Source of the DNA: Gammaproteobacteria bacterium
Lineage (GTDB): Bacteria; Pseudomonadota; Gammaproteobacteria; GCA-001735895
Reading direction: 5' to 3'
Length of the DNA: 64,000 nucleotides
Assembly: GCA_047639625.1 (NCBI GenBank)
Contig: JBLIOG010000001.1
Span: 169 to 64,168, forward strand
Shown here: piece after piece, positions 10,588-42,768 of the stretch
How the letters are laid out: the number at the start of each line of letters is the position of its first letter
Position numbering within the stretch: the first letter of the stretch is position 1
Made by a program: the position numbers and the translations under genes
Notes under the pieces: model-generated
Databases searched by the model: none
What the model was told of the DNA's origin: nothing
Seen by the model: only the letters and a program-made list of their open reading frames with translations

Positions 10588-10608
10588 ATCCTAAGGAGGA
10601 CAACACTC

Positions 10609-11421: not shown

Positions 11422-11509
11422 TTAAATAGATAGTTGATTAGAATTATGGGGCTGGAAGTGGAATTTTCGCAACCAGCCCCTGATTTTTCACCATCAATCA
11501 CTAAATAAA

Positions 11510-12415: not shown

Positions 12416-12428
12416 CCGGATTTCATCA

Positions 12429-14784: not shown

Positions 14785-14787
14785 TAT

Positions 14788-22653: not shown

Positions 22654-24502
22654 TCAGAGTGCTATCGCTATTCGGTAGGCATCCAGTATTGCTGCATGCA
22701 GTGATCGGCTACTGACATCATGACCGATTCGATACAACCTGAATGTGCTGGACTCATCCGTTTCATGAGGTTGAGCACTGGCTGACAGCAAGGCGTCGAT
22801 ATCGGTCACGCCACTATTAATAGATCGATTGCGTAGCTCGGTAAATACTTCATCAATCGGCGCTGTGCCCTGCTCAACTACGACCTGATCCGTTTCAATT
22901 TCAATTAATTCATTGGTTAAATCATTTCTAAAAGTTGCTAGCAAATGATTAGGTTGCGATTGAACGGATGGTAGTTTCATGTCCAGCTTAAAGTCTACTT
23001 AAGACGGTGCAGTTCTTTAAGGTGCACCGGACGCTCGGCATAGCCTAATTCGGCAGTGGATACTGCTTCTTGGCGTCCCGTTCCGTCATACACTAATACG
23101 CTATTTGCTGGCTTTACATCGCCACTGAGCAAATCCCAGATGATCAAGTTCACTGATTCTTCGGTTCACGACGCTAATAAGATCTCTTCGCCATCCAGCG
23201 CGGGTGGCGGTTAACAACTGACCACCGAGTTTCGGGGTTGCTTCAAGTAAAATCACCTCGTGGCCGCGTTCCGCTGAAACTCGCGCCGCCTCTAGCCCAG
23301 CCCAGCCGGGCCGCCGCCGAAAACGACAACTCGCTTTTTTATCCCGATGATAGGTTCAATAACTGGCGGTAACTCAAGTTCACGCCCTGATGTTGCGTTA
23401 TGAATACAATGAATTTTTTATGCATACAATGGAACGCACCAAAACAGGGACGGATTCGATCTTCCTCGCCACGTAAAATTTTATTGACTATATGCGGATC
23501 AGCAATGTGGGTACGTGTCGTAGCAACCATGTCCAAAACTCCATCTCGAATAGCGTGCCTGGCAGTAGGCCCATCAGTAATACGCGCTGCATGGGAAACT
23601 GGCAAAGATACTGAAGACTTCATTTCTTTTATCAAGGGTAAAAACGGTGCCAGCGGTTGCGTCATACTGGGCATATTATTTTCCGCAAGAGCCAACTCAG
23701 TATCCATTCGACCTGCTACACAATTAAGGAAACTAATTGCGCCTTCTCGTTCGAGCAATTGGGCAATCCTAATAGCATCTTCGGCCGATAATCCACCTCG
23801 ATCTTCCTGAATCGACATCCTGATGCCGAGTAAAAAATTATCCCCGACCTGTTTTCGAATCTCTTCATGAACCATGAGCGCAAAGCGGGCCCGATTTTCA
23901 ACACTACCGCCATACTTATCGGTTCTTTGATTTAACTCGGGTGAAAAAAACTGCCCAATAAGATGACCACCCCCGTGAGTTTCCAGTCCATCGAGTCCAC
24001 CTTCCAGGCATCATCTGGCCGCTTGCCCAAAAGCCTTTACAATCCGTTTGATATCAAATTCATCAATTTGTCGCGGGATACTTCGATGCAGAGTTTCGCG
24101 GATCGTCCCGGGTGATATGGTTGGTAACCAGTAATCGGCGGTTGCATCACCTCGGCGTCCAAGATGAGTAATCTGACACATCAAGGCAGTGCCGTGACTA
24201 TGTATACGTTCTGAAAATTTTTGGAGATGGGGGATAATTCGATCATGATCGATTCTTAGCTGGTTAAACACCGATGGCGAATCGGACGCTACATTCGAAG
24301 AACCACCAAACATTGTTAAAGCCAGCCCTCCTTTCACTTTTTCTTCATGGTAAGCCTGATATCGTTCACCCGGCATTCCACCGTCGTCCATACCACAGGC
24401 ATGCCTGGTACTCATAATTCGATTTTTTAACGTTAAATGACCAATCGTTAAAGGCTGAAACAGAGGGTCATTGGGTCGAATGGGTGTTGACTGTTCGCTC
24501 AT
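22654..24502 (-). pseudogene. Disrupted 2,4-dienoyl-CoA reductase (FadH)/NADH:flavin oxidoreductase-family gene
   Basis: N-terminal OYE fragment (24502-24011) and middle fragment (23875-23339) ending at a degenerate Fe-S motif RPCFGAFHC. The FAD-binding segment VVVFGGGPAGLG* carries an in-frame stop (~23300). The C-terminal piece (22980-22654) ends ...ILDAYRIAIAL, like FadH. At least three frame disruptions. Confidence 0.65.
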
Positions 24503-24582
24503 AATTCAAAACTTGCTAATTGTAGCCCAATATTAAACAATTCAGAATTTACGCTGGACGACGAATCTAGCAGAAAACTCGA

Positions 24583-24942
24583 TCAGTCATTATCGAGCGG
24601 AGCAAGGATACCTGATCGCGTGCGTTCAGAGGCCGTATCTATTTCAAATAATTTATCTCGGAAAAAGCTAGAACGAGATTTGAAATGGAATACAGAAGCA
24701 CCGATGATAGGAACACAGTGGAGAAATCCACACCATAGTAATTGTCTTTTTAAGGAGATTAGCGCGCTAAAAGTCGTTGTCACCGGAATCAGCAACAGGT
24801 GGACAGGAACAGCAACGACCAGGAAACCAAATAACGCGTTATCCATTATCTCCTCCATTGACTCCGACCAAATAGTCAAACTTAGGCATATCACCCGAAG
24901 GTACACTTCAGAATGTGAATAACTATACCCTGATACTGCCAT
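24583..24942 (-). CDS. Hypothetical small membrane protein (uncertain)
   Basis: 119-aa ORF with two hydrophobic segments, overlapping the PhzF 3' end by 20 bp. An opposite-strand ORF competes for the same DNA. No homology recognised. Confidence 0.25.
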   Translation of the reverse strand: MAVSGYSYSHSEVYLRVICLSLTIWSESMEEIMDNALFGFLVVAVPVHLLLIPVTTTFSALISLKRQLLWCGFLHCVPIIGASVFHFKSRSSFFRDKLFEIDTASERTRSGILAPLDND

Positions 24943-25816
24943 CCATTACCATTTTACAGGATCCGCCTATCCATGACCCGATGATGCTACCGGACTGTTT
25001 TTGAACGCGAGCTTCTAGCAAACTGGGACGATTCATTTTCACACCCTGGGCGATTCGCCAGGCAAAATGTCCCTCTGACTCCGAGCAATAATGACTTAAC
25101 ATAGAAACCAGTGCACAGTTTGCACTACCGGTTGCAGGGTCTTCCGGTACACCATCCAGAGGCGCAAAAACTCGACATCGGATATCGAACTCATCCTGAG
25201 ATCGTATGTAGACCAGAATGTCTGAGGTAATCCCTTGACCATGAACTTCTTCCAGCACCTGCGTGTTTACGGAGACTTTTTCGAGGGTAGTCCAATCTTT
25301 AAGTTCAACCATAATAAAGGGCAATCCGACTGAAGCAACCTGGGGCTGATGAGTGGCAGTCAAGATGTCATCGCTAGTCACCGATAGTGCTGAAGCAGCT
25401 TGATCCAAAGCTATTATCTCGCGAATAGATAAGGGCTCAGGGGCTTTTAGCTCACACCAGATACCTGTCCCGTCCCATCGGATTAAAATCGGTACCGGTC
25501 CGGCTAACTCGTCAAAGATGATCTCTTTTTCTTCACCAATGTCGCCTAGTTCGCCAATACTCGCAAGCGTAAATGCCGTGCCAATATTGGGATGACCCGC
25601 AAAAGGAACCTCCTGGGTCGGAGTGAATATTCGAACCTTTCTAGTATGTCTGTGATCCCCGGGCAATACGAATGTCGTCTCCGAATAATTAAATTCCCGC
25701 GCAATAGTTTGCATCTGTTCACTGGAAATTCCGTTTGCATTGGGAATAACAGCAAGAGGATTCCCACCAAATCGCTCATGCGTGAAAACATCGCAGGTAT
25801 AAAATTTATATTTCAT
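24923..25816 (-). CDS. PhzF-family isomerase-like protein
   Basis: N-terminus MKYKFYTCDVFTHERFGGNPLAVIP is typical of the PhzF family. 297 aa. Confidence 0.85.
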   Translation of the reverse strand: MKYKFYTCDVFTHERFGGNPLAVIPNANGISSEQMQTIAREFNYSETTFVLPGDHRHTRKVRIFTPTQEVPFAGHPNIGTAFTLASIGELGDIGEEKEIIFDELAGPVPILIRWDGTGIWCELKAPEPLSIREIIALDQAASALSVTSDDILTATHQPQVASVGLPFIMVELKDWTTLEKVSVNTQVLEEVHGQGITSDILVYIRSQDEFDIRCRVFAPLDGVPEDPATGSANCALVSMLSHYCSESEGHFAWRIAQGVKMNRPSLLEARVQKQSGSIIGSWIGGSCKMVMDGSIRV

Positions 25817-25860
25817 TGAGTCTCAGCTACTGTAAAACTACCATTGAGGGTTGGAAATCG

Positions 25861-27156
25861 TTATCTCAATTTATCAAGCAACTGATAATACCGAACAGCT
25901 GCACCAAGGAACCAGGGCTTACCCGAGTAGAGCGGTCGGGTTTGAAAACCAATCTGATCAAAGGCCGTTTTACCTTCCGGCTTTCCGAGCAATTGCTGGC
26001 CGATACGATTACCCATGAAACTGGCAAGACATATCCCCGAACCACAATAACCCATCGCATAATGTATACCGTCCTGGACACCGAGATGCGGTAAATTATC
26101 GAAGGTATATCCGACAAAACCCATCCAGCTGTGGCTAATCTTCACATCTTCCAGTTGTGGGAATATGCGCAATAATTCCGCCCGTAAAGCGGGTAGGCTT
26201 TTTTCGGGATCCGATTCAAAGACAGAAACGCGTCCACCAAACACAACACGATTCCCATCGGGAGAGCGACGAAAATAAACAACCACTTTACGCGTGTCGC
26301 TAAATACTCTGTCCTTTGGCATTAATGCTTGAGCACGCTCGGCAGGTAAGGCTTCGGTGGCCAGCATATAACTTCCAATTGGAACAATCCGGCGCTGTTG
26401 CCAAGGACTGACATTACCGGTATAGCCACTCGTGGCAATCACCAAATCTCTGCAATTAATCTTTCCTTTTGTAGTTGTAACCGTGAATCCATCGCTGCGT
26501 TTATCAATTTGATCGGCGCGGCAATGGCTCACAATTTCAACACCCACATCGATAGATTTTTGCAAAAGCCCCTGATGATATCTCGCTGGATCAAGCGAGC
26601 AATGCTGATCGATAACTAAACCACCATGATAAAACGGGCTGTCAATTTCGGTGCCTTGTTCAGCTTTGCTCACCAATCTTAAAGGCTGCTCGAGACCTTT
26701 TGGTTGATTCTCAATCGAATGTGCTAGTTGTTTGAACTGACGCGGACTATGGGCCGCTACAAATCGGCCGCATTGACGTAAGTCACAATCAATAGACTCT
26801 TCTTCAATAAATGTTTTAAGCCAGCTCAATGCATTTCTTGCTTCACCAATCAGGCTTTTTGCAGTATCGATACCATGCTTTCTAGAAAGCGCCTCATAAC
26901 CGGGTTTAATCTCACCACTAATCTGACCCCCATTTCTGGCACTGCAACCCCAACCGGCCGATTCGGCATCTATGACAAGGGTTTGACATCCAGCTCTGGC
27001 CGTTTGTAATGCGCAATTTAAGCCGGTATATCCCGACCCTATAATCAGTACATCAACGTATTCCGGTAAGGCCGCTACTGATTCGGCGGGTCTTGGCGTA
27101 CCATCCCACCAAAAGGGTGTATTTTTAAAATCCCGACTTTGAAATGAATAAGTCAT
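25861..27156 (-). CDS. FAD-dependent oxidoreductase (DAO family; DadA/PuuB-like)
   Basis: VLIIGSGYTGLNCA dinucleotide-binding motif. 431 aa. Sits 5 bp downstream of the sulfatase gene. Confidence 0.8.
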   Translation of the reverse strand: MTYSFQSRDFKNTPFWWDGTPRPAESVAALPEYVDVLIIGSGYTGLNCALQTARAGCQTLVIDAESAGWGCSARNGGQISGEIKPGYEALSRKHGIDTAKSLIGEARNALSWLKTFIEEESIDCDLRQCGRFVAAHSPRQFKQLAHSIENQPKGLEQPLRLVSKAEQGTEIDSPFYHGGLVIDQHCSLDPARYHQGLLQKSIDVGVEIVSHCRADQIDKRSDGFTVTTTKGKINCRDLVIATSGYTGNVSPWQQRRIVPIGSYMLATEALPAERAQALMPKDRVFSDTRKVVVYFRRSPDGNRVVFGGRVSVFESDPEKSLPALRAELLRIFPQLEDVKISHSWMGFVGYTFDNLPHLGVQDGIHYAMGYCGSGICLASFMGNRIGQQLLGKPEGKTAFDQIGFQTRPLYSGKPWFLGAAVRYYQLLDKLR

Positions 27157-27161
27157 ATAAA

Positions 27162-28697
27162 TTATACTCGAAGGGGTTCAATTCTCTGCAGCGGCGACTC
27201 GCGTCTAAACGGGCCACCCTCGCCTAACATGATGTCACTCATACCGCGATCCTGATAATTCATTTTCCACGACAACATCTTTTGACTGTAATGTAGAACT
27301 TCTGTCTGATAAGCCGGATCATTTGCCAAATTAATGAATTCGCCGGGGTCATTCTGCAAATCGAAAAACAAAGGTGGTAAGGCCGAAAAGTGAATGTATT
27401 TATAACGGTGATCACGAATTACAGACAGGCCACATTGATGCAGGGTCAAGCCCAGATGTTTTTCAATAGTGTCATCACGAACATCACGAAAATCACATTC
27501 CCAATGCACTTCTTCACGCCAACCATCGGGTACTTTATCGTGGTAAATCATGGGTAAAAGCGAAAAGCCGTCGCATTGTGACGGCACCGGTAACCCCAGC
27601 CAGTTCAACATAGTTGGCATAATATCTACGTTTTCGGTAAAGGCATCAAACTGTTTACCACGGCTACCATCTGCTTCAGCTCGCGGGTCTCTGATGATCA
27701 ACGGAATAAAATATGACTGATCAAAATAACCCTGTTTAAATCGTAACCAATGATCGCCTAATTGTTCACCATGGTCAGAGGTGAAAATAATCATCGTGTC
27801 GTCCCATAGACCTTCCGATTTGAGTATATCGAATAGTCGACCAAGGTTGTCATCTACCTCACTCATCAAACCAAAATAATTAGCTTTGTCCTGCTTGATT
27901 TGACGGCTTGAACCCGCCCTGTATTTACTATGATTTAAAAAATAATCAAGCAATGGATGTTGTTGAGATTCGATATCCGGATTTTCACTACGCATCGGTT
28001 CATCCAGATCGTCCGTATGATACATTTCGTTATAGGGCTCCGGCGCTGCAAAGGGCGGGTGCGGGCGCAACAATGACAAATGGGTGATCCAGGGTTCACG
28101 CCGTCCCTTTATCCAGTCAATGCATCGATTCACCATATAATGCGTTTCGTGATCTTCACTGCTCATGGCGAGAGGCAAAACGGACTCCCCCCCATCGGCG
28201 TAGTCGATTCCTTCACGGGTAATCGCGTACAAATCCCATAATGACTCCGGCATCGGGTGATTTCGCGATACCAGATAATTAGTCCAATCGACAGGGACTT
28301 CACCCTGAATCGGGGTGTAGTAACCCATTCCCGACAAAGGCTCACTATAATGGGTCAGGCGCGGGTCCTGTGGATCGAGCCCTCTTGGATCAGCTGCGGT
28401 GTCGGTATAACCGAACAACGAAGGATGATAACCAAGTCGATTAGCTTCCAACGCCCAGTTAGTAAACCGACTATCGAGCGGCGTACCATTCACGACACAT
28501 CGATGGTTTTGAAGGTACATACCCGTGTGCAAAGAAGTACGACTTGGCGCGCAGGGTGTGGCCTGAGCATAGTGATTTTTAAACAACACACCTTCTTTTG
28601 CAAGCGCATCAAGATTGGGAGTTTTTACCTGTGGATGATCACGGCTGGATAAACATTCTCCGCGCCATTGATCTGCTGTGATAAATAGAATATTCAT
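27162..28697 (-). CDS. Formylglycine-dependent sulfatase (alkaline phosphatase superfamily)
   Basis: N-terminal ILFITADQWRGEC and the C-X-P-S-R sulfatase signature (TPCAPSRTSLHTG). 511 aa, no signal peptide, so apparently cytoplasmic. Confidence 0.85.
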   Translation of the reverse strand: MNILFITADQWRGECLSSRDHPQVKTPNLDALAKEGVLFKNHYAQATPCAPSRTSLHTGMYLQNHRCVVNGTPLDSRFTNWALEANRLGYHPSLFGYTDTAADPRGLDPQDPRLTHYSEPLSGMGYYTPIQGEVPVDWTNYLVSRNHPMPESLWDLYAITREGIDYADGGESVLPLAMSSEDHETHYMVNRCIDWIKGRREPWITHLSLLRPHPPFAAPEPYNEMYHTDDLDEPMRSENPDIESQQHPLLDYFLNHSKYRAGSSRQIKQDKANYFGLMSEVDDNLGRLFDILKSEGLWDDTMIIFTSDHGEQLGDHWLRFKQGYFDQSYFIPLIIRDPRAEADGSRGKQFDAFTENVDIMPTMLNWLGLPVPSQCDGFSLLPMIYHDKVPDGWREEVHWECDFRDVRDDTIEKHLGLTLHQCGLSVIRDHRYKYIHFSALPPLFFDLQNDPGEFINLANDPAYQTEVLHYSQKMLSWKMNYQDRGMSDIMLGEGGPFRRESPLQRIEPLRV

Positions 28698-28733
28698 CTC
28701 TGACCCTTTTAATTGAGTAGTAGTTGAAAATCT

Positions 28734-30065
28734 TTAACCCATTAACAATGAGTCAAACGGACAATTAACCATATTTTCGTAACCATCTTCGGTTACCAGT
28801 ATCTGATCTTCGAGTTTAATACCATCCGGCCCACCCACTTCACCGATGTAGGCCTCGACACAGAGCATCATTCCGGGCTCTAATATTCCTTCATATCCAC
28901 GTTCTTCCCAGTCTATCGGATATTTAATCGCGGGCCATTCATCACAGAGTCCAACGCCATGAAACTTTGAGCCGTATCGCTGCGGAAGATATTGTTCGGT
29001 AAGGTGATGCCCGCCTTCGGTGACATCCTGAAAAGAAAGACCCGGTTTGATCATATCGGCGTTTGTCATAATATGGTCATAGGCAAATCGATGCATGTCT
29101 TTCTGGCGCTGGGTTGGTTTGCCATCTCCGATAAACCAGGTTCGTGAAATATCAGTACACATGCCGTAGCAACCAATAAGGTCGGTATCAAACGCCACAA
29201 TCTCATTATTAGCAATGACTCGCGGGCCACATTCCTGGAACCAGGGATTGGTGCGTTGTCCTGAGGACAGAATTCGTGTTTCAATCCATTCACCACCGCG
29301 CCGAATATTGGACTTATGTAATTCAGCCCAGACATCGTTTTCAGTCATTCCTGGTTGAGTCAGTTCACGCATTTCGGCAATCGAAGACTCACAGGCATGG
29401 ATTGCACAACGCATCGCCAGAATTTCGTCGGGTCCTTTTATCGCGCGCGTGCGTTCCATGAGCTCTTCTCCATCCATGACCTTTACTCCTGCTTCATCCA
29501 GCGCACGTAGGCCTGCTATTTGAATTTTATCAACGGCGACACGACGTCCCGACCCTACTCTTTGCTGGAGGACCTCAAGAACCTGACCGACAAATTTCTC
29601 AGCCTTTTCTTCAGTTCTCTGCGCCGTTGCAAAATAGAAAAATGAGGCACCCGATCTGACTTCACGAACCAGTGGATTGAAATTGGACATATAGGCATAA
29701 CCACCATATTCCCACAACACCAAATAACCATCAGCCGTCACCATACAGGCGCGGAAGGGATTATGTGCATTCCATAACTGCATGTGAGTTGAATCAGTCG
29801 CGTATCGAATCGACAATGGATCAAATAGCAATACTGCATCCAGCTCTCGTTCCTTTAACCCCGCAACGATTCGATCCAGACGATACTGGCGCATTACGGG
29901 TAGATCAGGGCACTGTAAACCAGCCGCTTCCCACTCGGCATAAGCCATTGGTGACGGTCCGATTTCTACTCGATCATTATCTTCCGGTGTATTATCCGGG
30001 CGCATGCCTGGACGACGAGCCGGGTTAACTTTGGGCTTTGGTATGGAATGGGGATTATCTGACAT
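28734..30065 (-). CDS. dddP: M24 (creatinase/prolidase-fold) family protein resembling DMSP lyase DddP
   Basis: 443 aa. Long stretches (NDRVEIGP, FDPLSIRYATDSTHMQLWNAHNPFRA, KGPDEILAMRCAIHACE, RRGGEWIETRILSSGQRTNPWFQECGPRV, KLEDQILVTEDGYEN) match my recollection of the DddP sequence. Not verifiable here. Confidence 0.55.
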   Translation of the reverse strand: MSDNPHSIPKPKVNPARRPGMRPDNTPEDNDRVEIGPSPMAYAEWEAAGLQCPDLPVMRQYRLDRIVAGLKERELDAVLLFDPLSIRYATDSTHMQLWNAHNPFRACMVTADGYLVLWEYGGYAYMSNFNPLVREVRSGASFFYFATAQRTEEKAEKFVGQVLEVLQQRVGSGRRVAVDKIQIAGLRALDEAGVKVMDGEELMERTRAIKGPDEILAMRCAIHACESSIAEMRELTQPGMTENDVWAELHKSNIRRGGEWIETRILSSGQRTNPWFQECGPRVIANNEIVAFDTDLIGCYGMCTDISRTWFIGDGKPTQRQKDMHRFAYDHIMTNADMIKPGLSFQDVTEGGHHLTEQYLPQRYGSKFHGVGLCDEWPAIKYPIDWEERGYEGILEPGMMLCVEAYIGEVGGPDGIKLEDQILVTEDGYENMVNCPFDSLLMG

Positions 30066-30069
30066 CGCG

Positions 30070-32490
30070 TTACCCTCTCAGTCTTGAGCCTGTCGAATCA
30101 AAGGGTGGTTTTTCAAGAATGACTGCTGCATGAGGTTGCCCTAGCACAGCAACTTCCAGTTCAGTACCGGCAATCGCATGTTCGGTTTTAACAAAACAGA
30201 GCGCTAGCGATGCCAAAACCGAATGACTATAGGCACCGGAGCTTACACGACCAACGGGTGTTCCGTCGGTCAGAAAAATCGGCTCGCTGCCGTTAGCATC
30301 GGCATTATCCGTTTCTATCTGAACCATGACCAGTTTTTCTCGGGGCGGCTTATCTTTGATCGCAAGATAGGCATCTTTCCCGAGGAACTCAGGCTTATCA
30401 AGTTTGATCAATCGATCAAGTCCTACTTCCTGTGGCCAGTATTCGGGGGAATATTCCCGACTCCAACTGCCATAACCTTTTTCAACTCGTAGTGATAATA
30501 ATGCTCGTCCACCGATGGGTTTAACCCCATACGTTTGACCCGCATCGAGCAAGGCCTTATAAAGCGCCAACTGATGCTCAACTGGAACATAAACCTCGAA
30601 CCCGAGGTCTCCGCTAAATGAGACTCTAAGCGCAATAGCGTCCAGACCTGTAATGCGAATTTTACGATTGCGCATAAAAGGAACTGCATCCCCCGATAAA
30701 TCTTCGTCGCAAACTTTCTCCAGTAAATGTCTCGAGTTAGGGCCAGCTATATTAAAACCCGCCCAGCTTTCGGTCAGACTTTCAAAATTCACGGTATCGC
30801 TCTTATCGACCATATCGAAATAACGTTTGTGATAACGTTCGGCAATCCCGGAACCAATCATCATAAATTCTTCTTCGTCCAGTTTGGTAATCGTGAAGTC
30901 ACCGGCAATACCACCGCGCAATCCGATTAAGGGCGTAAGACAACTCCGTCCAGTTTCGGTCGGTACGTAGTTAGCAACCAGGCGATTTAAATAATCGGCT
31001 GATCCGACACCTGAAATCCGATACTTGGCAAAGTTCGAGACATCGATAATGCCGACTGACTCTCGCAATGCACGACACTCTGCGGCGACCGGTTCAAACC
31101 AGTTTTGACGTTCGAATCCATAAGTCTCTATCGGTTCCATACCTTCAGGGGCATACCAGAGAGGATGTTCGTATCCGTAACTTAATCCAAACACTGCACC
31201 CATTTTTTTCTGTAAGTCATAAACCGGCCGTTTATTAATCGGACGACCCGCTTGACGTTCTTCGTAGGGAAAATGTATTTTAAATCGATGCGAATATTGG
31301 TCGAGCGTACGCGCTTTTGTGAAAGCTTTGTTCGCCCAGGTACCGAAGCGAGCCAGATCCCAGGGGAACAGGTCCATTTTCGACTCACCTTCGACAATCC
31401 ATTCCGCCATGGTAACGCCGAGTCCACCCGACTGTGAGAATCCAGGAATGATCCCACAACAGCAAAAGTAATTTTTAAGTTCAGGTACCGGACCAATCAA
31501 AGCAGAGCTATCCGGCGCCCAAATCATTGGGCCATTAATCACGCGCTTGACGCCAGCTTCGGCAAGAACTGGAACACGCTTAAATGCCCGTAACATATTT
31601 TCTTCAATTCTTTCCAGATCTTCGTCCAGTAATTCATGGCCAAAATCTTGTGGTGTTCCATTTTCAGACCAATATCGACCATCTTTTTCATAAGCACCGA
31701 CTAACAAACCCTGACCTTCCTGGCGCATATAATATTCGCCATCACGATCTGCGATTAAAGGTAACCGTTGCTCAAGCGCTGCAATTTCCGGAATGGTTTC
31801 GGTTACAAAATACTGATGCTCGAGCGGCATCAACGGTAAATCAAAGCCCGCCATTGCGGCAACTTCTCGCGCCCATAAACCGGCAGCATTGACGACCACC
31901 CCGGCATGAATGGTAGCTTTGTCAGTTTCAACATCCCAGCTTCCATCATGTCGCTGCGTCGTCGCGATAACCGGCGTAAAACGATGAACCTCAGCACCCC
32001 GTTGACGGGCTCCCTTAGCGTAGGCATAAGTCACCCCAGAAGGATCAACATTACCACCATCGGGTTCGTACATGATGCAACGGATGTCATCAAAATTCGC
32101 CAGCGGATGCATACGTTCGGCTTCATCGCGATTCAATTCATGAAAATCGACCTGGAAATATCGAGCTTTGGCTGCCTGCATTCGAAGTTGGTATTCACGA
32201 TCTCTAGTTTGAGCAAGATAGAGCGAGCCCGGTTGAAATATTCCACAGCTTTGTCCCGTTTCGCGCTCCAGTTCTTCATAAAGTTGCATCGTATAATATT
32301 GCAATTTCGAAATATTATTATGGTCGTGCAGACCGTGTATTCCAGCCGCTGCATGCCAGGTTGAACCCGACGTTAACTCATCACGTTCGAGTAGAACAAC
32401 ATCGGTCCAACCGATTTTTGTCAAATGGTAAAGAATAGAACAACCAATCAGACCACCCCCAATAACAACAACTTGTGCTTCAGTTTTCAT
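30070..32490 (-). CDS. Dimethylglycine/sarcosine dehydrogenase-family protein (FAD oxidoreductase + GcvT-like folate domain)
   Basis: 806 aa with N-terminal VVVIGGGLIGCS FAD motif and a C-terminal aminomethyltransferase fold. 4 bp from the upstream gene. Confidence 0.85.
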   Translation of the reverse strand: MKTEAQVVVIGGGLIGCSILYHLTKIGWTDVVLLERDELTSGSTWHAAAGIHGLHDHNNISKLQYYTMQLYEELERETGQSCGIFQPGSLYLAQTRDREYQLRMQAAKARYFQVDFHELNRDEAERMHPLANFDDIRCIMYEPDGGNVDPSGVTYAYAKGARQRGAEVHRFTPVIATTQRHDGSWDVETDKATIHAGVVVNAAGLWAREVAAMAGFDLPLMPLEHQYFVTETIPEIAALEQRLPLIADRDGEYYMRQEGQGLLVGAYEKDGRYWSENGTPQDFGHELLDEDLERIEENMLRAFKRVPVLAEAGVKRVINGPMIWAPDSSALIGPVPELKNYFCCCGIIPGFSQSGGLGVTMAEWIVEGESKMDLFPWDLARFGTWANKAFTKARTLDQYSHRFKIHFPYEERQAGRPINKRPVYDLQKKMGAVFGLSYGYEHPLWYAPEGMEPIETYGFERQNWFEPVAAECRALRESVGIIDVSNFAKYRISGVGSADYLNRLVANYVPTETGRSCLTPLIGLRGGIAGDFTITKLDEEEFMMIGSGIAERYHKRYFDMVDKSDTVNFESLTESWAGFNIAGPNSRHLLEKVCDEDLSGDAVPFMRNRKIRITGLDAIALRVSFSGDLGFEVYVPVEHQLALYKALLDAGQTYGVKPIGGRALLSLRVEKGYGSWSREYSPEYWPQEVGLDRLIKLDKPEFLGKDAYLAIKDKPPREKLVMVQIETDNADANGSEPIFLTDGTPVGRVSSGAYSHSVLASLALCFVKTEHAIAGTELEVAVLGQPHAAVILEKPPFDSTGSRLRG

Positions 32491-32493
32491 AAT

Positions 32494-33714
32494 TTACTCT
32501 TTCAAGAGGTTATTGACGATTTGCGGGGCGACCACCAGAGGATAAGACTGGAACCCATGGATACCCCCTCTAAAACTTTTTTCACCAGCCGCTTTTCCTA
32601 CAGGCAAAATATTAAAACCCAGGCCATATCCGTACAAACCCGGAATACGCTCAGCACTCTCTAAAGTGAATAGCTCACCGTTGGCTGAAGGTTTACCGAG
32701 GTTTACATTTTTGCCGTCAATCTGGAGGATAGGAACATCCGGTTTAAAACCTGTCGCTTGCAAAATAAGCGCGGATTGCCCCAGTAAGCCCTGTTGATCC
32801 GAACAATGATTTATATTAACAAGTTTGACCCTTTTTTCCAGACCATCACGAATGTTCAGATACAGCCACTTGGCATCTTTACGCAATCCGGCATGTGAAT
32901 AAACCAGTCCGGTCGATGCCGCTAGATCGGCTTCAGGATCATAATTAATCTGATGCTGTTTCGCAAACTCAGGTGTGCAGCGAACCTTGATGGCGTCATG
33001 GCGCTGGAGGATGAAAATTTCACGCTGACCCAAATTGTCCGAAAACAATGGATCATTCAAGAGTCGCCAGGCACAGGAAAAAGCACTGTGGGAAGCTCCG
33101 ACAATAACCACAGGACCTTGCCCCGACGGCAGGGCGGTCAGGTTTTTACGGAGTAGAAATTGTAAGGAACCTTCCACCTTCTCGGCGTAATCCGATAATT
33201 CGGGTAGGACATCATCGCGACCACCACAACACAAAACAACCTGATCACTTCGAGATATTACATTTCCCTCCAGATCAATAGATTCAAATTTTTCTTTATC
33301 AATGCGCAACTGCTTAACAGGTCGATTTAATAGTAGACGAGTACCAAGAAGATCGCGGACTATCCTGATTAATGGCTGCACCATTAATTGATCAATTTCG
33401 GATAATGGAATCAGGTCTTTGCTGGTTTGCGGCAGCTTTAAATATAGTTCACGTAGTTCGGCAAATACGGTGCCTTCTAACATACCCTGGACAACATCTT
33501 TCGAACTGGTATTGGCATTGATTTGATACTTGCCCATTAAACCACCGGGCTTGTCGGTGGCTTCAATCATGACGAGCTTATCGAACAGGGATCTTGCCTT
33601 TAGTGTTCCCGTCTGCGAACGATCGCTTTGCGCTATATGATTACATAGCGCAATAATCAGACTCATTCCTGCAGGCCCGGCGCCAATAATCTGCAACGGG
33701 ACGGTATCAGTCAT
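32494..33714 (-). CDS. FAD/NAD(P)-binding oxidoreductase (two dinucleotide-binding motifs; possibly an N-hydroxylating monooxygenase-like fold)
   Basis: IIGAGPAGMS at the N-terminus and a second VVIVGASHSAFSCAW motif. 406 aa. 3 bp from DMGDH-like gene. Confidence 0.55.
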   Translation of the reverse strand: MTDTVPLQIIGAGPAGMSLIIALCNHIAQSDRSQTGTLKARSLFDKLVMIEATDKPGGLMGKYQINANTSSKDVVQGMLEGTVFAELRELYLKLPQTSKDLIPLSEIDQLMVQPLIRIVRDLLGTRLLLNRPVKQLRIDKEKFESIDLEGNVISRSDQVVLCCGGRDDVLPELSDYAEKVEGSLQFLLRKNLTALPSGQGPVVIVGASHSAFSCAWRLLNDPLFSDNLGQREIFILQRHDAIKVRCTPEFAKQHQINYDPEADLAASTGLVYSHAGLRKDAKWLYLNIRDGLEKRVKLVNINHCSDQQGLLGQSALILQATGFKPDVPILQIDGKNVNLGKPSANGELFTLESAERIPGLYGYGLGFNILPVGKAAGEKSFRGGIHGFQSYPLVVAPQIVNNLLKE

Positions 33715-33728
33715 GTCAAAGACTGCAA

Positions 33729-34991
33729 TCAGGCAGCGAGGTGTATCTTGATGATTTCATCGAGTTCATTGAGAAATCTAAGGACTTCTTCACGGCTATT
33801 GTAATGACACATAGAAACCCGGATGCAGGTTGGACGACCCAGTGGATCAAGAATATTACCCGAAAAATAATCAGCTTTACGAACATGAGTGCGGATACCT
33901 TTAGCATTCAAATCTGCAACCACTTCAGCACATGGTTTGCCTTCGACAATGATCGATACCATACCTTCACGCGCAGGATTATCGAGCCCACCAATCACAA
34001 AAACCTCAGACATATTTCTTAAGCCACGCTGTTCGCCATCACCATTGATCATGATATCGATAAGACCGTGTTCCTGCGCAGTAATCGCTTCACCGGCCGC
34101 TAGAATTCGAGTTCGACGGTCGGTAGATTCGGTGAATTTTGAACCGAGCCAGTCAAAATATTCGATAACAGCCGTAGTACAGGCAAAAGCCGAAGTATCA
34201 CGAGTTCCCATTTCCCAGAAATCAGACGGTGTGCCATCCAGATGATCATGCGGTAAATGCGCAAGTCGGGGAGAAACCCAGGCAAATCCATAATTGTGTC
34301 GAGAAAAAACTTTGTATGCAGAAACAGCGTAACCATCAATATCATAATCATCGACGGCGAGTCCGCCATGCGCTGCATGCTGAATGCCGTCAAGAATAAT
34401 AATGCAATCCGGCGAAGCCGTCCGAATGGTCTTAACCACAGCTTCAACGTTAACCGACATTCCAGTAACAGGGCTGGTATGGATAATAGTAGCTACGCGT
34501 GTATCTGCATCGACCACTTTGGCATAATCATCGGCGGTTACGGTTGCCGTGTCGTTATCATGAAGAACTGCGCGGTATTCTTTACCAGCGACCGTTGACC
34601 AACGCTTTCCTGCTGTGACAGTGGCCGGATGTTCAAGTGTGCTACCTACGACATTGCCACCCTCGGGTGAGCCCATTACTGCAGCCCGAACCAGTCTAAA
34701 CAATAATTCAGTACCACTTTCGCCGGTGAATACCGGGCCCTCTTTAACCCCAAGAAAAATTCGCATATTGTCGCGGGCTTCGCTAATAATTCGAACCAGC
34801 TCATGCGAAGCCGGGTTATCTCTACCCTGATTATCAGGAATGCCTGCCAGCGTTGTATTAACCTCTACGACCGACTTCAGAGTCAGTCCGCCACCCGCAT
34901 TTTCAAAGAATATTCTCGGACCCTGAAATGGGCAAATATCGACATGGCAAAATCGATCTCTAATTTGTTGCATTAATACTGCTTCAAACAT
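33729..34991 (-). CDS. Class-V PLP-dependent aminotransferase/desulfurase-fold enzyme
   Basis: 420 aa. Fold-type I class V features. First gene of the long minus-strand operon, divergent from LysR. Confidence 0.7.
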   Translation of the reverse strand: MFEAVLMQQIRDRFCHVDICPFQGPRIFFENAGGGLTLKSVVEVNTTLAGIPDNQGRDNPASHELVRIISEARDNMRIFLGVKEGPVFTGESGTELLFRLVRAAVMGSPEGGNVVGSTLEHPATVTAGKRWSTVAGKEYRAVLHDNDTATVTADDYAKVVDADTRVATIIHTSPVTGMSVNVEAVVKTIRTASPDCIIILDGIQHAAHGGLAVDDYDIDGYAVSAYKVFSRHNYGFAWVSPRLAHLPHDHLDGTPSDFWEMGTRDTSAFACTTAVIEYFDWLGSKFTESTDRRTRILAAGEAITAQEHGLIDIMINGDGEQRGLRNMSEVFVIGGLDNPAREGMVSIIVEGKPCAEVVADLNAKGIRTHVRKADYFSGNILDPLGRPTCIRVSMCHYNSREEVLRFLNELDEIIKIHLAA

Positions 34992-35083
34992 CTGTTTCCC
35001 TCTGCAGGCTGGTACGAATTTCTTAGGTTAAGGTGAGTTAATTAAAAGATGCTAGCACCCGACCTACTAAAAAGATAACATTT

Positions 35084-35108
35084 ATTACTTTACTAATTCG
35101 AAAGTAAT
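35084..35108. promoter_or_regulatory. Candidate LysR-type (T-N11-A) operator palindrome in divergent promoter region
   Basis: ATTACTTTACTAATTCGAAAGTAAT is a perfect 8-bp inverted repeat ATTACTTT/AAAGTAAT, lying between the class-V aminotransferase operon and the LysR gene. Confidence 0.35.
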
Positions 35109-35122
35109 TCTTTCTAATATTT

Positions 35123-35986
35123 ATGAATATCCGATACTTCGAGAGCCTGCTCCACATTGTAGAACTGGGTTCGATCGCCAAAGCTGCAAGAGTTCAGAAT
35201 TTAACACCAGCTGCGGTTGGTCAGCGTATTATTGCGCTTGAAAAACACTTTAATACGCCCTTGCTCAACCGCAGTCAGCACAAGGCGGTTGCAACACGGG
35301 CCTGTGTTGATTTATTGCCTAGGATTCGAGGGCTGGTCAAAGGATTTCACGATCTTAGCGATCAGATCGATCCCTCAGGACTGGAAGGGAAATTTCACAT
35401 CGGTGCCATCTCAACGGCATTAACAGGATTACTACCCAGTGCTGTCCATCAATTGGCCGAACAGGCACCGCGCCTCAATTTACAAATACGCCCTGGGACT
35501 TCTAATTCTCTGTTTAACGACCTTCAGGAGGGCAGCATCGATGCTGCGATAATAGCCGCCCCGCCCTATGAAGTTCCACGCCGATTTCAGGTGAATATCC
35601 TACGAAGCGAGCCCCTGGTATTACTTTCACATCACCAAACTCAACACTCGATTCGGGACCAATTACAGCAGGACCGATACATTTGTTACGACTCTCAATC
35701 CTGGGGTGGACTCAAAGCCAACCAATATTTGAAAGACAATAATATTGACATCGAACCTTACTACGAACTTGATGCATTGGAAGCCATCGAAAAATTGGTG
35801 AAACAAAATATGGGCGTTTCACTAGTGCCACTTTGGTCAGGTCTAGACACCTTAGATACTGATCTGAAGACGACCGAGATCAATAATTCGCTCTATCACC
35901 GAAATATCATACTGGTAACACCTGCCACATCAAAAAGACCGAGAATCGTATCTGCATTACTTGCATCATTGACTATCATTGATTGA
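35123..35986 (+). CDS. LysR-family transcriptional regulator
   Basis: HTH motif LHIVELGSIAKAARVQNLTPAAVGQRIIALEKHF. Divergent from the 24923-34991 operon. Confidence 0.85.
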   Translation: MNIRYFESLLHIVELGSIAKAARVQNLTPAAVGQRIIALEKHFNTPLLNRSQHKAVATRACVDLLPRIRGLVKGFHDLSDQIDPSGLEGKFHIGAISTALTGLLPSAVHQLAEQAPRLNLQIRPGTSNSLFNDLQEGSIDAAIIAAPPYEVPRRFQVNILRSEPLVLLSHHQTQHSIRDQLQQDRYICYDSQSWGGLKANQYLKDNNIDIEPYYELDALEAIEKLVKQNMGVSLVPLWSGLDTLDTDLKTTEINNSLYHRNIILVTPATSKRPRIVSALLASLTIID

Positions 35987-36099
35987 TCGAGAGCCCGCTA
36001 TTCTGAATTTTCAACGGCGATTCCTTTTTGCTGACATGTTGGTGATTGAGAAAAAGAACCCCTCCGCCGGTGGTATCGAGCAGTCCCTGAATTATTTAA

Positions 36100-37103
36100 A
36101 TGATCAATTTCAGTCATTCGATTCAAGCTATGAAGCATTTATTCTTTGCCTTTAAACGTTTACCCCTACTTTTACCGGGCGTCCAGTGCGTTGCTATCGG
36201 CGCTCATCAAATCCTGTTTCATCTCATGAAACCCTTGAACGGGTTACTCACGGGGATTTTAATCAAAGAATTTGGGTTGGTAAAATCCATTCGAAACACC
36301 ATAACCTGGCGCATCAGGCGATGATTCAAAATCATCGCAGCCATGAGTATAAGCAGGTTCATGCAAACTTGAACGCTCTGAAGACACGCAGCCTGATCGT
36401 TAACCTTGAACATGGTCAGTAAGATTTGAGCAAGATTTCAGATATCATGGACGAAATCGCCAACATGTCTGAAAAAGCAGCGATAGGCTCCGGAGAGTCA
36501 AAAGCATCGGTGCAAACAGTAACAGCCAACCTTGGAGACCTGCTTGGAAAAATCTCATCCATAAACGATCGATCCAATCAATTCGCACAACAAACTCATG
36601 CAGTGGCAGACACGCTAAACATGATTAATTCGATTACCGATCAGACTATCCTGTTAGCGTTAAATGCCGCTATAGAAGCCGCTCGCGCCGGTGTTCACGG
36701 CAGAGGGTTTGCGGTTGTCACCGATGAAGTTAAAAAGCTGGCTGCGACTACCCGCAAAGCAACTGACGAAATACAGGCGATGATGAAAGGGTTTATCGAA
36801 TCGGCCCATCAAATGCAATCCGGTGCCAATGACATGATTCAAATGGCGAATCGATCACAAGAAGTCATAGATCAATTTCCCAAATCAATAAAGACCATAG
36901 GCGATAGTTCCCTGGCCGTATTTCAGCGAAACTCCTTCGCTCAAATTGTCAGTTTTTGTTCGCTGATTAAACTCGAGCATCATAATGATCTGATCGATCT
37001 GCTCATCGCCGAAAAAATGCAATTCGAAATTAGCTCCGATGATCCAGGTGCAATCGAAACCGAAGTTGATTTTTTTCTAACAAATACCTCACTCCACACT
37101 TAA
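36100..37103 (+). pseudogene. Truncated/disrupted methyl-accepting chemotaxis protein (HAMP remnant + MCP signalling domain)
   Basis: MCP signalling motif [32 protein letters not shown]. Upstream HAMP-like GDFNQRI is in the same frame but separated by a single TAA (36420-36422), and a further frameshift lies near 36320. No sensor or TM region is present between the LysR end and this fragment. Confidence 0.6.
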
Positions 37104-37626: not shown

Positions 37627-38303
37627 TTCGGAGGACAACAAATTAAAAGTAGATTTGCCGACACCTTCAGGGCAGCGGTCATTCGGGAATAGTCGCGTCG
37701 AATCTTATTAGACTCCCCACTGGCGTAATTGACCAAAGCCCAGGCCGCGACCCCACGTTCATTGCTGACAATTTTTTCCATCTCACCGTATATTGCTCCC
37801 CCTTTGACGCATCGAGTTCACTACCACCTGATTTCAAGAACATGTTGAACCGATCACGGTTCCAGAACCCCGAAAAATCTTTTCGATTTATCTCATTTCT
37901 AGTCGGATAGTGCCAGTTTTCGCCTTTAAAACAGAGGGGCAATATCCTAAATAGTTAAGTAGTCTAATACAGATTCACTTACGTTACGGCCTGTAGCTTT
38001 GTCGAGAGTACCTGTTGTTGGCGCCTACGTAGAACTTACAGCACCCAATTACTCAGATACTGCGCCACAGTGCTACCAGGATGGGTGAGCAATTCCCCGG
38101 ACGAGACTTTAACCCGCTAGATTAATCGCCGATGCCAGCGTGCGACCTGACCCCTGCTACTTGCCTATGACTTTCGTCCTGATGCTTAGGGGGAGGTAAG
38201 AACTTGCCGCCTGCCTGCAAACTTTCGCTCTTTCTTAGTAATTTATTGACCAGCGCACTCATCTAACCAAACGTCAAATGCCTCCATCGCGTTTGTATCG
38301 TGC

Positions 38304-39626
38304 TTGAACGATCAATGTCATACCAGGAATGTCTCGATGATCGGGTTGGCACCAAATTTGCTGGCAATCTGTATTCTTACACAAATTGTAAAGGCTGCGC
38401 GCATGATGAATAGTCAGGCATATCAAATAGAATCGACATTTCCATCAATCTACTTAAACGGTTTAGCCCAGCTCATGACGCGGGTATTCCGCGGCGAAGA
38501 TTTAACCGAATTAGGTTTAGATTTAGTTAACCAGGCCCAAACAGGTGACGCGCAAGCGCTGTTAGATTTATCGATTTTATTGCAGTTGCAAGGTCAGGCG
38601 GAGCTAGCTCTAACGATACAACAACAAGCGCTGCAACTGGAACAACATTATCAGCTGCCTCCAGTGAATGATCGGAAGGCGATCAACTTGCTTGCCATTG
38701 TGGCGCCAGGCAACCTAATGACCAATACACCGCTGGAGTTTATCGCCGAGGGTGCGGGGTTTAACTTGCAGTTGCTATATGTTGATCAGAAACTGCCTTT
38801 ACCACAAAACCTGCCCGAGCATGACATTGCGATCGTCGCGCTCAGCGAGCTCGATGCAAACATGGCCACCCTGGATTACATCAGTAATTGGATAGATCTT
38901 TGGCCACGTCCAGTACTTAACTTGCCAGGCGACATTAGTGTATTGGGTCGGGATCTGATTTCGCAGAAGCTGCAGCATATCGCAGGGCTTGAAATGCCGT
39001 TAACGTTTAGGATAGGCCGTGACAAACTCGAGCACGTGATCTTGACTAAGGGTGATTTGTCTGACTGGATTGATGATGGTGAGCTACCGGTCATTATTCG
39101 GCCTATAGATTCTCATGCAGGCATTGGGCTTGAAAAATTAGACGAAATGATCGAACTCCAAAGTTATTTGACGCGCCATGATGAAGCAGAATTCTTCGTC
39201 TCCCGCTATGTGGATTATCGAAAAAAAGATGGTCAATTTCGTAAATATCGGGTTGCAGTGATCGACGGCCAGGCCCATCTAGCACATTTGGCGGTTTGTG
39301 ATCAGTGGAAAATCTATTTTGGCATCGCTGGTATGGAGGCGAGCTCCGTTAAGCGTGCAGAAGAGGCGCGTGAAATGGCCAGTTTTAAAGACCAGTTCGC
39401 AAAACGCCATGCCTACGCGATCAGAGCTTTGCACGAGGCAGTCGGTCTGGATTATTTTGGCATCGATTGCAGTGAGACCCAGGACGGTAAATTGCTTATT
39501 TTTGAAGTCGGCGCTTCCATGAACATTCATTCCATGGATAGCGCGGAACTATATCCTTATAAACAGCCGCAAATGCAGAGTATATTTAATGACTTTCTAG
39601 CCATGCTGCAGCGAAAGCGGAGTTAA
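38304..39626 (+). CDS. Hypothetical protein with a C-terminal ATP-grasp-like domain
   Basis: 440 aa. Segment PVIIRPIDSHAGIGLEKLDEMIEL...YRVAVIDGQ...LLIFEVGASMN resembles the RimK-like ATP-grasp core. N-terminal half uncharacterised. Confidence 0.45.
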   Translation: MNDQCHTRNVSMIGLAPNLLAICILTQIVKAARMMNSQAYQIESTFPSIYLNGLAQLMTRVFRGEDLTELGLDLVNQAQTGDAQALLDLSILLQLQGQAELALTIQQQALQLEQHYQLPPVNDRKAINLLAIVAPGNLMTNTPLEFIAEGAGFNLQLLYVDQKLPLPQNLPEHDIAIVALSELDANMATLDYISNWIDLWPRPVLNLPGDISVLGRDLISQKLQHIAGLEMPLTFRIGRDKLEHVILTKGDLSDWIDDGELPVIIRPIDSHAGIGLEKLDEMIELQSYLTRHDEAEFFVSRYVDYRKKDGQFRKYRVAVIDGQAHLAHLAVCDQWKIYFGIAGMEASSVKRAEEAREMASFKDQFAKRHAYAIRALHEAVGLDYFGIDCSETQDGKLLIFEVGASMNIHSMDSAELYPYKQPQMQSIFNDFLAMLQRKRS

Positions 39627-41487: not shown

Positions 41488-42768
41488 CTAACGACTTATC
41501 GCATCCTGATCAATTGCAGGTAATGGCTTATCTTCAATTGCTGCCTCAAAAGAAGACAACCGTTTATAAACAGATATGAGTTCAATAATCGTTGGCCAGG
41601 AGTTGATCAAAAATTGAAAAGAACTGCTTACCTGTCCAAATGCTGCAGAAATTTGCTGATAAACTCCGAAAGTTAATGCCCCAACAGCTAGCGTTGGTAC
41701 CAATAGAATTAATACGAAAATATTATCCGCCTGTAGATACATATATCGGGCTACATTAAAATACATGTAATGAAAATATAGTTTGAAATAGTTTTTACGG
41801 ACGTTTTCGAACAGATCTTTTAATTTTGCTGGTTGGGCTCTTGTTTCATCGTCTTCGCCGTATACCAATTCCTTTCTATAGGCGGCTTCGACTAACTGAT
41901 TATTGAATTCCAGCCCAGGTAATTTAATACCTACGGTAGCCAGTAAAATTGTTCCAAATAGAGACCAGGCAATAACCGCAAAAAATAGTGGATATGCAAT
42001 TTCTCCGACTATCGGGAGTTCTTTTACGTAATCTGATAGTACCAACAATACTGGAAGGAAGGCAAAAAGCGTCATGATTGAATCGATAATAGAGACTCCT
42101 AAATTCTCCATAATCTTGGCAAAGATCATAGTGTCTTCCTGCACACGCTGCGATGCACCTTCAATTTTCCTAAGCCTTTGCCATCGCTCGGTATAGTACT
42201 TATTCATGGCAGTGCGCCAGCGAAAAATATAATGACTAACAAAAAATCGAGTAAGTACAATCACAAAAATTGCAATCATTGCTAGCTCAAGAAATACTAA
42301 AGACAAATCAAGAATATCCGCTCCGATTTTGGCAACGTCTTCTGGAGCACGCACTTCTGCGACAACTTCACTACCACCATCCCCTACTTTTTTAAATGCC
42401 GCCTGGACTTTATTAAAAAATGGACCTCGCCAGTTATTGATAGCTACCGATACCTGTACCGAATAGTAGGTCGTAAATATGATGAATGCCGATCCGGTTA
42501 TTGACCACCATCGCCACGGGTGGTGTGATAATTTAAACCAGAATATTGAAAATAATGCGGTACAGAAAAAGTAGTAGCCATAGAAAAGTAAAAATGAATC
42601 GGTAAAAAAATGTCCTGATCCGATAACGGGTTCAGATTCGGCCAGTTCCAGACCAAGCCAGCCTCCAATGACCTCACTATACCCAAACCAGATAAAGCAG
42701 CTAAGACCCGCATAGACAATAAGCGATAAAAAGAAAACCTTTGGATTGGGAAAAAACGACTTGAACAT
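41488..42768 (-). CDS. sbmA: SbmA/BacA-family peptide (microcin/antimicrobial peptide) importer
   Basis: N-terminus MFKSFFPNPKVFFLSLIVYAGL mirrors E. coli SbmA MFKSFFPKPGTFFLSAF. Conserved HYVFRWRTAMN, EGASQRVQEDTM, GIKLPGLEFNNQ and YRKELVYGEDD blocks. 426 aa. Confidence 0.85.
   Translation of the reverse strand: MFKSFFPNPKVFFLSLIVYAGLSCFIWFGYSEVIGGWLGLELAESEPVIGSGHFFTDSFLLFYGYYFFCTALFSIFWFKLSHHPWRWWSITGSAFIIFTTYYSVQVSVAINNWRGPFFNKVQAAFKKVGDGGSEVVAEVRAPEDVAKIGADILDLSLVFLELAMIAIFVIVLTRFFVSHYIFRWRTAMNKYYTERWQRLRKIEGASQRVQEDTMIFAKIMENLGVSIIDSIMTLFAFLPVLLVLSDYVKELPIVGEIAYPLFFAVIAWSLFGTILLATVGIKLPGLEFNNQLVEAAYRKELVYGEDDETRAQPAKLKDLFENVRKNYFKLYFHYMYFNVARYMYLQADNIFVLILLVPTLAVGALTFGVYQQISAAFGQVSSSFQFLINSWPTIIELISVYKRLSSFEAAIEDKPLPAIDQDAISR

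Follow-up and report, generated by a model that had tools for sequence, protein, structure and literature searches.

Does the M24-fold protein encoded at positions 28734 to 30065 of a gammaproteobacterial contig cleave dimethylsulfoniopropionate (DMSP), as the resemblance of its sequence blocks to the lyase DddP had suggested, and what is its gene doing beside a sulfatase and an enzyme of the dimethylglycine dehydrogenase (DMGDH) family? We addressed this question in a stretch of 64,000 nucleotides (contig JBLIOG010000001.1 of assembly GCA_047639625.1, positions 169 to 64,168 of the forward strand), which is referred to below as the window. Sequence comparisons place the protein in the DddP family and its gene, dddP, in a run of seven genes that is conserved in close relatives. 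We consider it likely, with a probability of about 0.6, that dddP encodes an iron-dependent lyase of DMSP, and also of dimethylsulfoxonium propionate (DMSOP), which is co-expressed with methylated-osmolyte catabolism under a LysR-family regulator.

Family membership and active site

The open reading frame (ORF) of dddP is intact, starts with ATG and fills positions 28734..30065 of the minus strand exactly with 443 codons, while about 440-450 amino acids are expected for a DddP. Its product has the two-domain architecture of this family, with Creatinase_N, a creatinase/prolidase-type N-domain, at residues 62-209 (Pfam, E 1.1e-7) and Peptidase_M24 at residues 217-426 (E 7.8e-32). In a phmmer search of all PDB chains the best match is the DddP of Ruegeria lacuscaerulensis (RlDddP; 4rzy, 571 bits, E 1.4e-170), whose residues 4-445 are co-linear with residues 6-443 of the window protein. 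The RlDddP structures 4rzy, 4s00 and 4s01 are matched at E 1.4e-170 to 2.6e-169 and that of the Roseobacter denitrificans enzyme (RdDddP, 4b28) at E 2.6e-156, and the first match after the DddPs is a prolidase at E 1.4e-16. The blocks noted in the initial annotation are therefore part of an end-to-end homology that goes far beyond chance, with 55.6% identity (243/437) to RlDddP.

This is further supported by the NCBIfam models. The DddP equivalog NF043017 matches the whole protein with 655.5 bits, above its curated cutoff of 600, and the second-best family, DoeA_2 (NF038259), reaches 59.9 bits against a cutoff of 575. On the same model RlDddP scores 922 bits, and non-roseobacter DddPs from Arenicellales, Granulosicoccaceae, Amphritea, Pseudomonas, Pikeienuella and Oceanospirillaceae metagenome-assembled genomes (MAGs) score 616-791 bits; by this calibration the window protein appears as an ordinary "outer" member of the family, above threshold. 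NCBI labels MAG proteins that are 80-86% identical to it "dimethylsulfonioproprionate lyase DddP", and this exact protein "Xaa-Pro aminopeptidase". On all the features that can be tested in a sequence it belongs to the DddP family, and dddP itself adds one sequence to an already known family.

An enzyme of the creatinase, DoeA or Xaa-Pro peptidase type, feeding sarcosine or amino-acid metabolism, had been proposed as the alternative. Creatinase, DoeA and the Xaa-Pro dipeptidases have the pita-bread domain, the creatinase/prolidase N-domain and five metal-ligand positions in common with the window protein, and sarcosine oxidase subunits (620-4061) and a DoeB-like deacetylase (4034-5056) are encoded in the same window. 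Nevertheless, such an identity is extremely improbable and is ruled out by the scores: these proteins match the window protein with 25-64 bits, compared with 524-571 bits for the DddP structures. The DoeA structure 6twk reaches 25 bits, and creatinase is absent both among the 32 PDB matches at E<=1e-3 and among the NCBIfam matches. DoeA models give 59.9 (NF038259) and 39 bits (TIGR02993, cutoff 613), and prolidase and aminopeptidase models 58 (PRK09795, cutoff 393), 46 (PRK10879, cutoff 465) and 44 bits (PepQ, cutoff 630). Moreover, all of these enzymes are hydrolases while DddP is a lyase, and RlDddP is inactive on Val-Pro (PMC5395565).

The active site, whose residues had been named as a check on the DddP assignment, was compared by aligning 80 sequences of the family with MAFFT. 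All six metal ligands (D293, D295, D305, H369, E404 and E419, equivalent to D295, D297, D307, H371, E406 and E421 of RlDddP) are found in the window protein, as are the catalytic and sulfonium-binding residues W98, Y364 and D375 (W95, Y366 and D377 of RlDddP). Each of these nine positions is invariant in 79-80 of the 80 sequences. In RdDddP the metal is bound by Asp295, Asp297, Asp307, His371, Glu406 and Glu421, among which Asp297 is the ligand that M24 peptidases of the methionine aminopeptidase type lack, and the invariant Tyr366 and Asp377 have been proposed as catalytic (PMC4108388); the presence of this sixth ligand in the window protein further argues against a peptidase. The dimer interface of the family is reported to be highly conserved (PMC4108388), and according to a review the Trp and Tyr hold the sulfonium of DMSP and the Asp abstracts its alpha-proton (PMC5395565). 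Clade-specific substitutions, sought as the mark of a new function, occur at three positions only (82, 146 and 322 in RlDddP numbering), none of which lies within five residues of a catalytic or ligand residue, counted along the sequence and not in three dimensions.

Truncated genes in the window, namely a split gene of the old yellow enzyme (OYE) family at 23339-24502, a lone signalling domain of a methyl-accepting chemotaxis protein (MCP) at 36426-37103 and pieces of PhyH and short-chain dehydrogenase (SDR) genes, could suggest that dddP is itself a decaying or non-functional copy. This is hardly credible, given that the ORF is of full length and co-linear from end to end with the crystal-structure sequences, that the catalytic residues are all intact, and that an identical DddP protein is encoded on contigs from three separate samples. 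Purifying selection on dddP in this clade is strong, with a ratio of nonsynonymous to synonymous substitution rates (dN/dS) of 0.03-0.07 among clade members that are close enough for a comparison; dS is saturated where the window gene is paired with its nearest relatives.

Compared with the roseobacter enzymes (R. lacuscaerulensis, R. denitrificans and Roseovarius nubinhibens), the window protein has the same length and two-domain M24 architecture, and with RlDddP it has the metal ligands, Trp95, Tyr366 and Asp377 in common. In contrast, the roseobacter DddPs fall in another clade of the tree and, as seen from RlDddP, score higher on the roseobacter-centred model. The divergence of the window protein lies within the range of functional DddPs from other organisms: DddP1 and DddP2 of Oceanimonas doudoroffii (OdDddP1 and OdDddP2), the enzyme of the scallop symbiont HWgs001 (55% identity to OdDddP2) and those of Aspergillus (50% to RdDddP) and Fusarium (32%) are 32-55% identical to reference enzymes and still release dimethyl sulfide (DMS; PMC4108388, PMC10989825). 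Since DddPs of equal or greater divergence retain activity on expression in E. coli, DMSP lyase activity of the window protein in vitro is very likely by analogy; that DMSP is also its physiological substrate is less certain.

By homology, the protein is expected to be a homodimer of M24 fold whose binuclear iron centre has six carboxylate or imidazole ligands. The carboxylate of DMSP would bind to the di-iron centre, with Trp98 and Tyr364 positioning the sulfonium, Asp375 would abstract the C-alpha proton, and beta-elimination would release DMS and acrylate. DMSOP would likewise be cleaved to dimethyl sulfoxide (DMSO) and acrylate, more slowly than DMSP; DddPs are reported to catalyse this reaction with lower efficiency (PMC10686828). 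The mechanism is transferred here from the characterized enzymes and should be read as probable for the window protein.

The operon and its conservation

In the window, dddP is the fourth of seven genes on the same strand, which follow one another at gaps of 14, 3, 4, 36, 5 and 44 bp (Table 1). The stop codon of the DMGDH-like gene lies 4 bp ahead of the dddP start, and the Shine-Dalgarno sequence of dddP, GAGAGGG, 7 nt before the ATG, falls within the last codons of the DMGDH-like gene, so that dddP appears to be translationally coupled to it. Together with the spacing of 3-44 bp this suggests that the seven genes are co-transcribed. The arrangement that had been called unusual, with dddP between the genes of a sulfatase and of a DMGDH-family enzyme, is confirmed (same strand, gaps of 36 and 4 bp, respectively) and is in addition conserved in about 30 species-level MAGs, while it is missing around more distant DddPs.

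To define this conservation, we scanned the neighbourhoods of DddP homologues in one genome per GTDB species. The scan yielded 80 loci at 53-86% identity (these and other related loci are identified by L numbers where needed), nearly all from uncultured marine Gamma- and Alphaproteobacteria; linkage counts are corrected for contig edges and given relative to the assessable loci. Where DddP identity is at least 78% (35 species-level MAGs), the DMGDH-like gene lies directly upstream in 28/29 loci, at a gap of 1-5 bp in 25 of these 28, the sulfatase gene downstream in 27/29 and the gene of a pyridoxal phosphate (PLP) enzyme upstream in 21/21. At 70-77% identity the corresponding counts are 6/13 (in Arenicellales and Rhodospirillales/Alphaproteobacteria), 1/14 and 0/11, and below 70%, where Pseudomonas, Amphritea, Neomegalonema and Granulosicoccaceae are included, 0/28, 0/27 and 0/22. 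In a neighbour-joining tree all DMGDH-linked DddPs form one clade, in which the sulfatase-linked ones are a gammaproteobacterial subclade, and RlDddP is placed elsewhere.

Two loci depart from the common order. In L029 dddP directly follows the PLP gene; of the assessable close relatives, this is the only one in which the DMGDH-like gene has been lost. In L050 the DMGDH-like gene shares 85% identity with that of the window, compared with only 71% for the adjacent DddP, and an extra ORF separates the two genes; dddP may have been replaced or recombined here within a conserved cluster.

Conservation of this kind contrasts with the reported surroundings of roseobacter dddP, which comprise glutamine synthetase, nitrogen-regulation and murein genes (10.1101/168930, 10.64898/2025.12.05.692484). 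None of the functional non-roseobacter DddPs has been reported with the operon of the window, as far as their descriptions can be compared. A likeness, again by description, is seen in dddP of the Gamma3 symbiont of gutless oligochaetes, for which the linkage was glimpsed and transcripts were found in situ, in a preprint that does not include the sulfatase, the flavoprotein, the PLP enzyme or the conservation of the operon (10.64898/2025.12.05.692484). In the literature that we searched, no paper joins dddP and dimethylglycine dehydrogenase in this sense. Nor are the tightness of the linkage, its phylogenetic extent and the sulfatase, PLP-enzyme and flavoprotein partners reported there.

Table 1. 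Positions and assignments of dddP, its operon and the osmolyte-related genes of the window.
Feature	Position	Strand	Length	Basis or remark
dddP, DddP-family M24 enzyme, predicted DMSP/DMSOP lyase	28734..30065	-	443 aa	ORF, Pfam, NCBIfam, PDB
Class-V PLP enzyme (cysteine-desulfurase-like / UstD-like)	33729..34991	-	420 aa	Pfam Aminotran_5; first operon gene
Flavoprotein with two dinucleotide-binding domains	32494..33714	-	406 aa	sub-threshold/borderline Pfam Pyr_redox_2, NAD_binding_8
DMGDH-like flavoprotein	30070..32490	-	806 aa	Pfam DAO + FAO_M + GCV_T + GCV_T_C
Formylglycine-type sulfatase, arylsulfatase / phosphonate-monoester-hydrolase group	27162..28697	-	511 aa	Pfam Sulfatase; CAPSR motif at residue 49
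DAO-family FAD amine/amino-acid oxidoreductase	25861..27156	-	431 aa	Pfam DAO E 1e-60
PhzF-family isomerase	24923..25816	-	297 aa	Pfam PhzC-PhzF, TIGR00654; last operon gene
LysR-family regulator, divergent	35123..35986	+	287 aa	Pfam HTH_1 + LysR_substrate
Perfect inverted repeat ATTACTTT-N9-AAAGTAAT, T-N11-A core	35084..35108	.		read from sequence, 131-bp divergent intergenic region
Sarcosine oxidase alpha	620-3559
Sarcosine oxidase gamma	3561-4061
DoeB-like deacetylase	4034-5056			214 bits, below cutoff 403
Rieske/VanA-type oxygenase	8502-9584
Amino-acid-type ABC transporter	9727-13184
Amidase + AllG	13447-15993
OYE+FAD two-domain flavoenzyme (demethylase-like)	16637-18706

Among the other products of the operon, the one encoded directly upstream of dddP can be assigned to the dimethylglycine dehydrogenase family by its full-length match to the rat (621 bits, residues 2-797) and human enzymes (612 bits). 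The PLP enzyme reaches 152 bits on NCBIfam TIGR01976, below the cutoff of 352, with weak PDB matches to UstD and SufS. The sulfatase scores 560 bits on the PehA model, below its cutoff of 900, and matches the structures 4uph and 2vqr with 465 and 440 bits; by these comparisons it falls in the promiscuous group of arylsulfatases and phosphonate monoester hydrolases. The choline-O-sulfatase BetC was considered and ruled out (TIGR03417, 184 bits against a cutoff of 433; PDB choline sulfatases, about 125 bits). For the DAO-family oxidase, whose gene is found downstream in most sister loci, the best NCBIfam matches are pipecolate oxidase and aminophosphonate oxidoreductase, both far below their cutoffs. 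The PhzF gene is restricted to contigs of the window's own lineage and is absent from all sister loci.

The 406-residue flavoprotein has no PDB match by sequence and no NCBIfam family, and its own family comprises only 146 clusters among 5.8e9 proteins, all labelled "hypothetical". A confident AF2 model (predicted local distance difference test, pLDDT, 87.4; predicted template modelling score, pTM, 0.86) was compared by Foldseek. The top matches are the N-hydroxylases SidA, PvdA, putrescine N-hydroxylase and DfoA (TM score 0.55-0.58, 13-15% identity, E about 2e-13), and thioredoxin-reductase-like proteins rank after these class B N-hydroxylating monooxygenases. The model hints at an N- or S-oxygenase, at the level of the class and without an assignment. 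Related flavoproteins were found at the loci L084, L086, L087 and L089. In L086 a 44%-identical flavoprotein stands in the arrangement LysR / PLP / flavoprotein / DMGDH / DddP without a sulfatase, and the other three loci adjoin MsrA and have an orthologous sulfatase (64-67% identity) nearby but no DddP. Outside the DddP operon the flavoprotein gene thus lies beside MsrA, along with genes for the orthologous sulfatase, AhpC, Usp and PNPOx. Because these MsrA-adjacent loci carry both genes without DddP, the association of flavoprotein and sulfatase can exist independently of DddP.

The LysR gene diverges from the operon, and its orthologue occupies the same divergent position in L004, L007, L010, L021, L025, L083 and L086. 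The inverted repeat between regulator and operon is a candidate LysR binding site, and control of the operon by LysR may be proposed on this basis.

Sister MAGs contain further genes that the window lacks, as in L006, L008, L009, L012, L020, L028, L030, L031, L041 and others: the sulfatase is immediately followed by a TauD/TfdA-family Fe/2-oxoglutarate dioxygenase of about 355 aa, and upstream of the PLP gene there are an Fe-alcohol dehydrogenase and a signal-peptide-bearing MsrA. The alcohol dehydrogenase is closest to GbsB-type choline dehydrogenase (194 bits against a cutoff of 550), and the TauD-, PhyH- and HalD-like genes of these MAGs match no NCBIfam family. That the N-hydroxylase-like, UstD-like and dioxygenase genes have a biosynthetic, siderophore-like function was considered and set aside, since the dioxygenases and a MatE gene are encoded on other strands, vary in their presence among loci and are missing from the window.

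The native substrate

We read the operon as a co-regulated module that would consume zwitterionic osmolytes, to which DddP would contribute the DMSP branch; that dddP of a gammaproteobacterial worm symbiont is transcribed in situ (10.64898/2025.12.05.692484) is consistent with a functional role. Several observations weigh against this reading. Characterized DddPs are poor catalysts, with a Km of 14-17 mM (PMC4108388, PMC5395565), and substrate profiling argues that both DddP and DddQ probably cleave DMSP promiscuously, their native function being unknown (10.1101/168930). Moreover, the coupled partner of DddP is a DMGDH-like N-demethylase, an enzyme with no known role in DMSP cleavage. Accessory genes for DMSP or acrylate (dddT/BCCT, acuI, prpE, dmdA-D, dddA/C) were found neither across the 64-kb window nor in the sister loci, although such a link would be supportive of a DddP and not defining, and the same lack is reported for roseobacter dddP (10.1101/168930). 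Finally, scans of positions 24000-36200 gave fewer sigma-70 promoter-like sites than shuffled sequence and no convincing intrinsic terminator after the operon; with nothing above the shuffled background, the operon call follows from gene spacing.

A credible, though less likely, rival reading is that the protein is a true DddP that in this clade cleaves DMSP as a side activity. In that case another onium or zwitterionic metabolite would be the native substrate, and the native reaction a beta-elimination or related cleavage of a carbon-heteroatom bond, for example in an N-methylated and/or sulfated osmolyte, within a pathway made up of the conserved set of PLP enzyme, flavoprotein, DMGDH-like protein and DddP, with or without sulfatase and DAO oxidase. 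The tight linkage of dddP to the DMGDH-like gene speaks for this, as do the extension of this gene pair to Arenicellales and Rhodospirillales MAGs with the linked DddPs in a single clade, the retention of the core in the distant locus L086 and the lack of acrylate and DMSP-uptake genes nearby. The worm-symbiont dddP was also noted beside "sarcosine oxidase, dehydrogenase genes" (10.64898/2025.12.05.692484). There is a precedent in DddQ, a weak "DMSP lyase" with a conserved DMGDH-like neighbour, which the Tawfik laboratory read as acting on a different native betaine substrate and proposed as a (hydroxy)proline-betaine enzyme (10.1101/161257), and the judgement of DddP as promiscuous fits this view as well. 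However, DddQ is a cupin of unrelated fold, and its other neighbours, mandelate-racemase-like genes, are unlike those in the window. Every known position of the active site is unchanged, with no clade-specific change nearby in the sequence, and roseobacter dddP knockouts lose 50-90% of DMS production, with dddP being induced by DMSP (PMC5395565). The co-location with osmolyte genes may reflect co-regulation only, the sequence names no candidate substrate for such a pathway, and part of it may be an independent module, as sulfatase and flavoprotein also co-occur without DddP.

In a more far-reaching form, which we put forward tentatively and regard as doubtful, the LysR-controlled module of PLP enzyme, flavoprotein, DMGDH-like protein and DddP, joined in Gammaproteobacteria by sulfatase and DAO oxidase, would break down another marine metabolite, of onium or zwitterionic type, by a route not yet described, and DddP would not primarily be a DMSP lyase. 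In a sub-variant of this proposal the flavoprotein would be an S-oxygenase that interconverts DMSP/DMS with DMSOP/DMSO. Such a pathway, if real, would show what the most abundant "DMSP lyase" family of the ocean natively does, a matter of long debate.

The choice between a DMSP lyase, which we favour, and an enzyme for another substrate bears on how dddP is counted. In metagenomes of ocean and sediment, dddP is reported to outnumber every other bacterial DMSP-lyase gene: it accounts for about 65% of the ddd genes in Tara Oceans and is predicted for 4-16% of the bacteria in surface sediment (PMC10686828); at this abundance it enters estimates of marine DMS production. If DMSP is confirmed as the substrate, the result is the routine annotation of one more DddP; if it is not, the use of metagenomic dddP counts to estimate DMS production would have to be reconsidered for this clade. 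While the roseobacter contexts of dddP are uninformative, the conserved catabolic operon of this sediment gammaproteobacterial clade offers an experimental handle on the native role.

Other features of the window

Genes for methylated-amine and osmolyte catabolism are dense between positions 620 and 18706 (Table 1). Downstream of the operon, the minus-strand ORFs at 23339-23875 and 24011-24502 correspond to the C-terminal (profile positions 210-340) and N-terminal (2-159) parts of one Oxidored_FMN (OYE) enzyme. The pair looks like a split or pseudogenized gene, and both parts are called on all three independent contigs. The MCP signalling domain at 36426-37103 (+) comes without sensor or transmembrane parts, a PhyH dioxygenase is represented at 46092-46628 (+) by its C-terminal half and an SDR at 53490-53987 (-) by its C-terminal two-thirds; taken together with the split OYE gene, these fragments suggest some gene decay in the genome.

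Domains D1-D4 of a group II intron match at 37979-38119 (-) (Rfam RF02003, 64.1 bits, gathering threshold 49, E 9e-12), and no intron-encoded protein is obvious close by on that strand. The adjoining ORF of 440 amino acids (38304-39626, +) matches no family of Pfam or NCBIfam.

Between positions 40001 and 46000 the G+C content is 0.38-0.42, compared with about 0.46 elsewhere in the window. This segment carries an SbmA/BacA-like transporter gene (41488-42768), a second DAO-family oxidoreductase gene (44367-45788; similar to aminophosphonate oxidoreductase, with a sub-cutoff score of 170 bits) and long stretches in which no ORF reaches 150 amino acids, and may be an acquired island.

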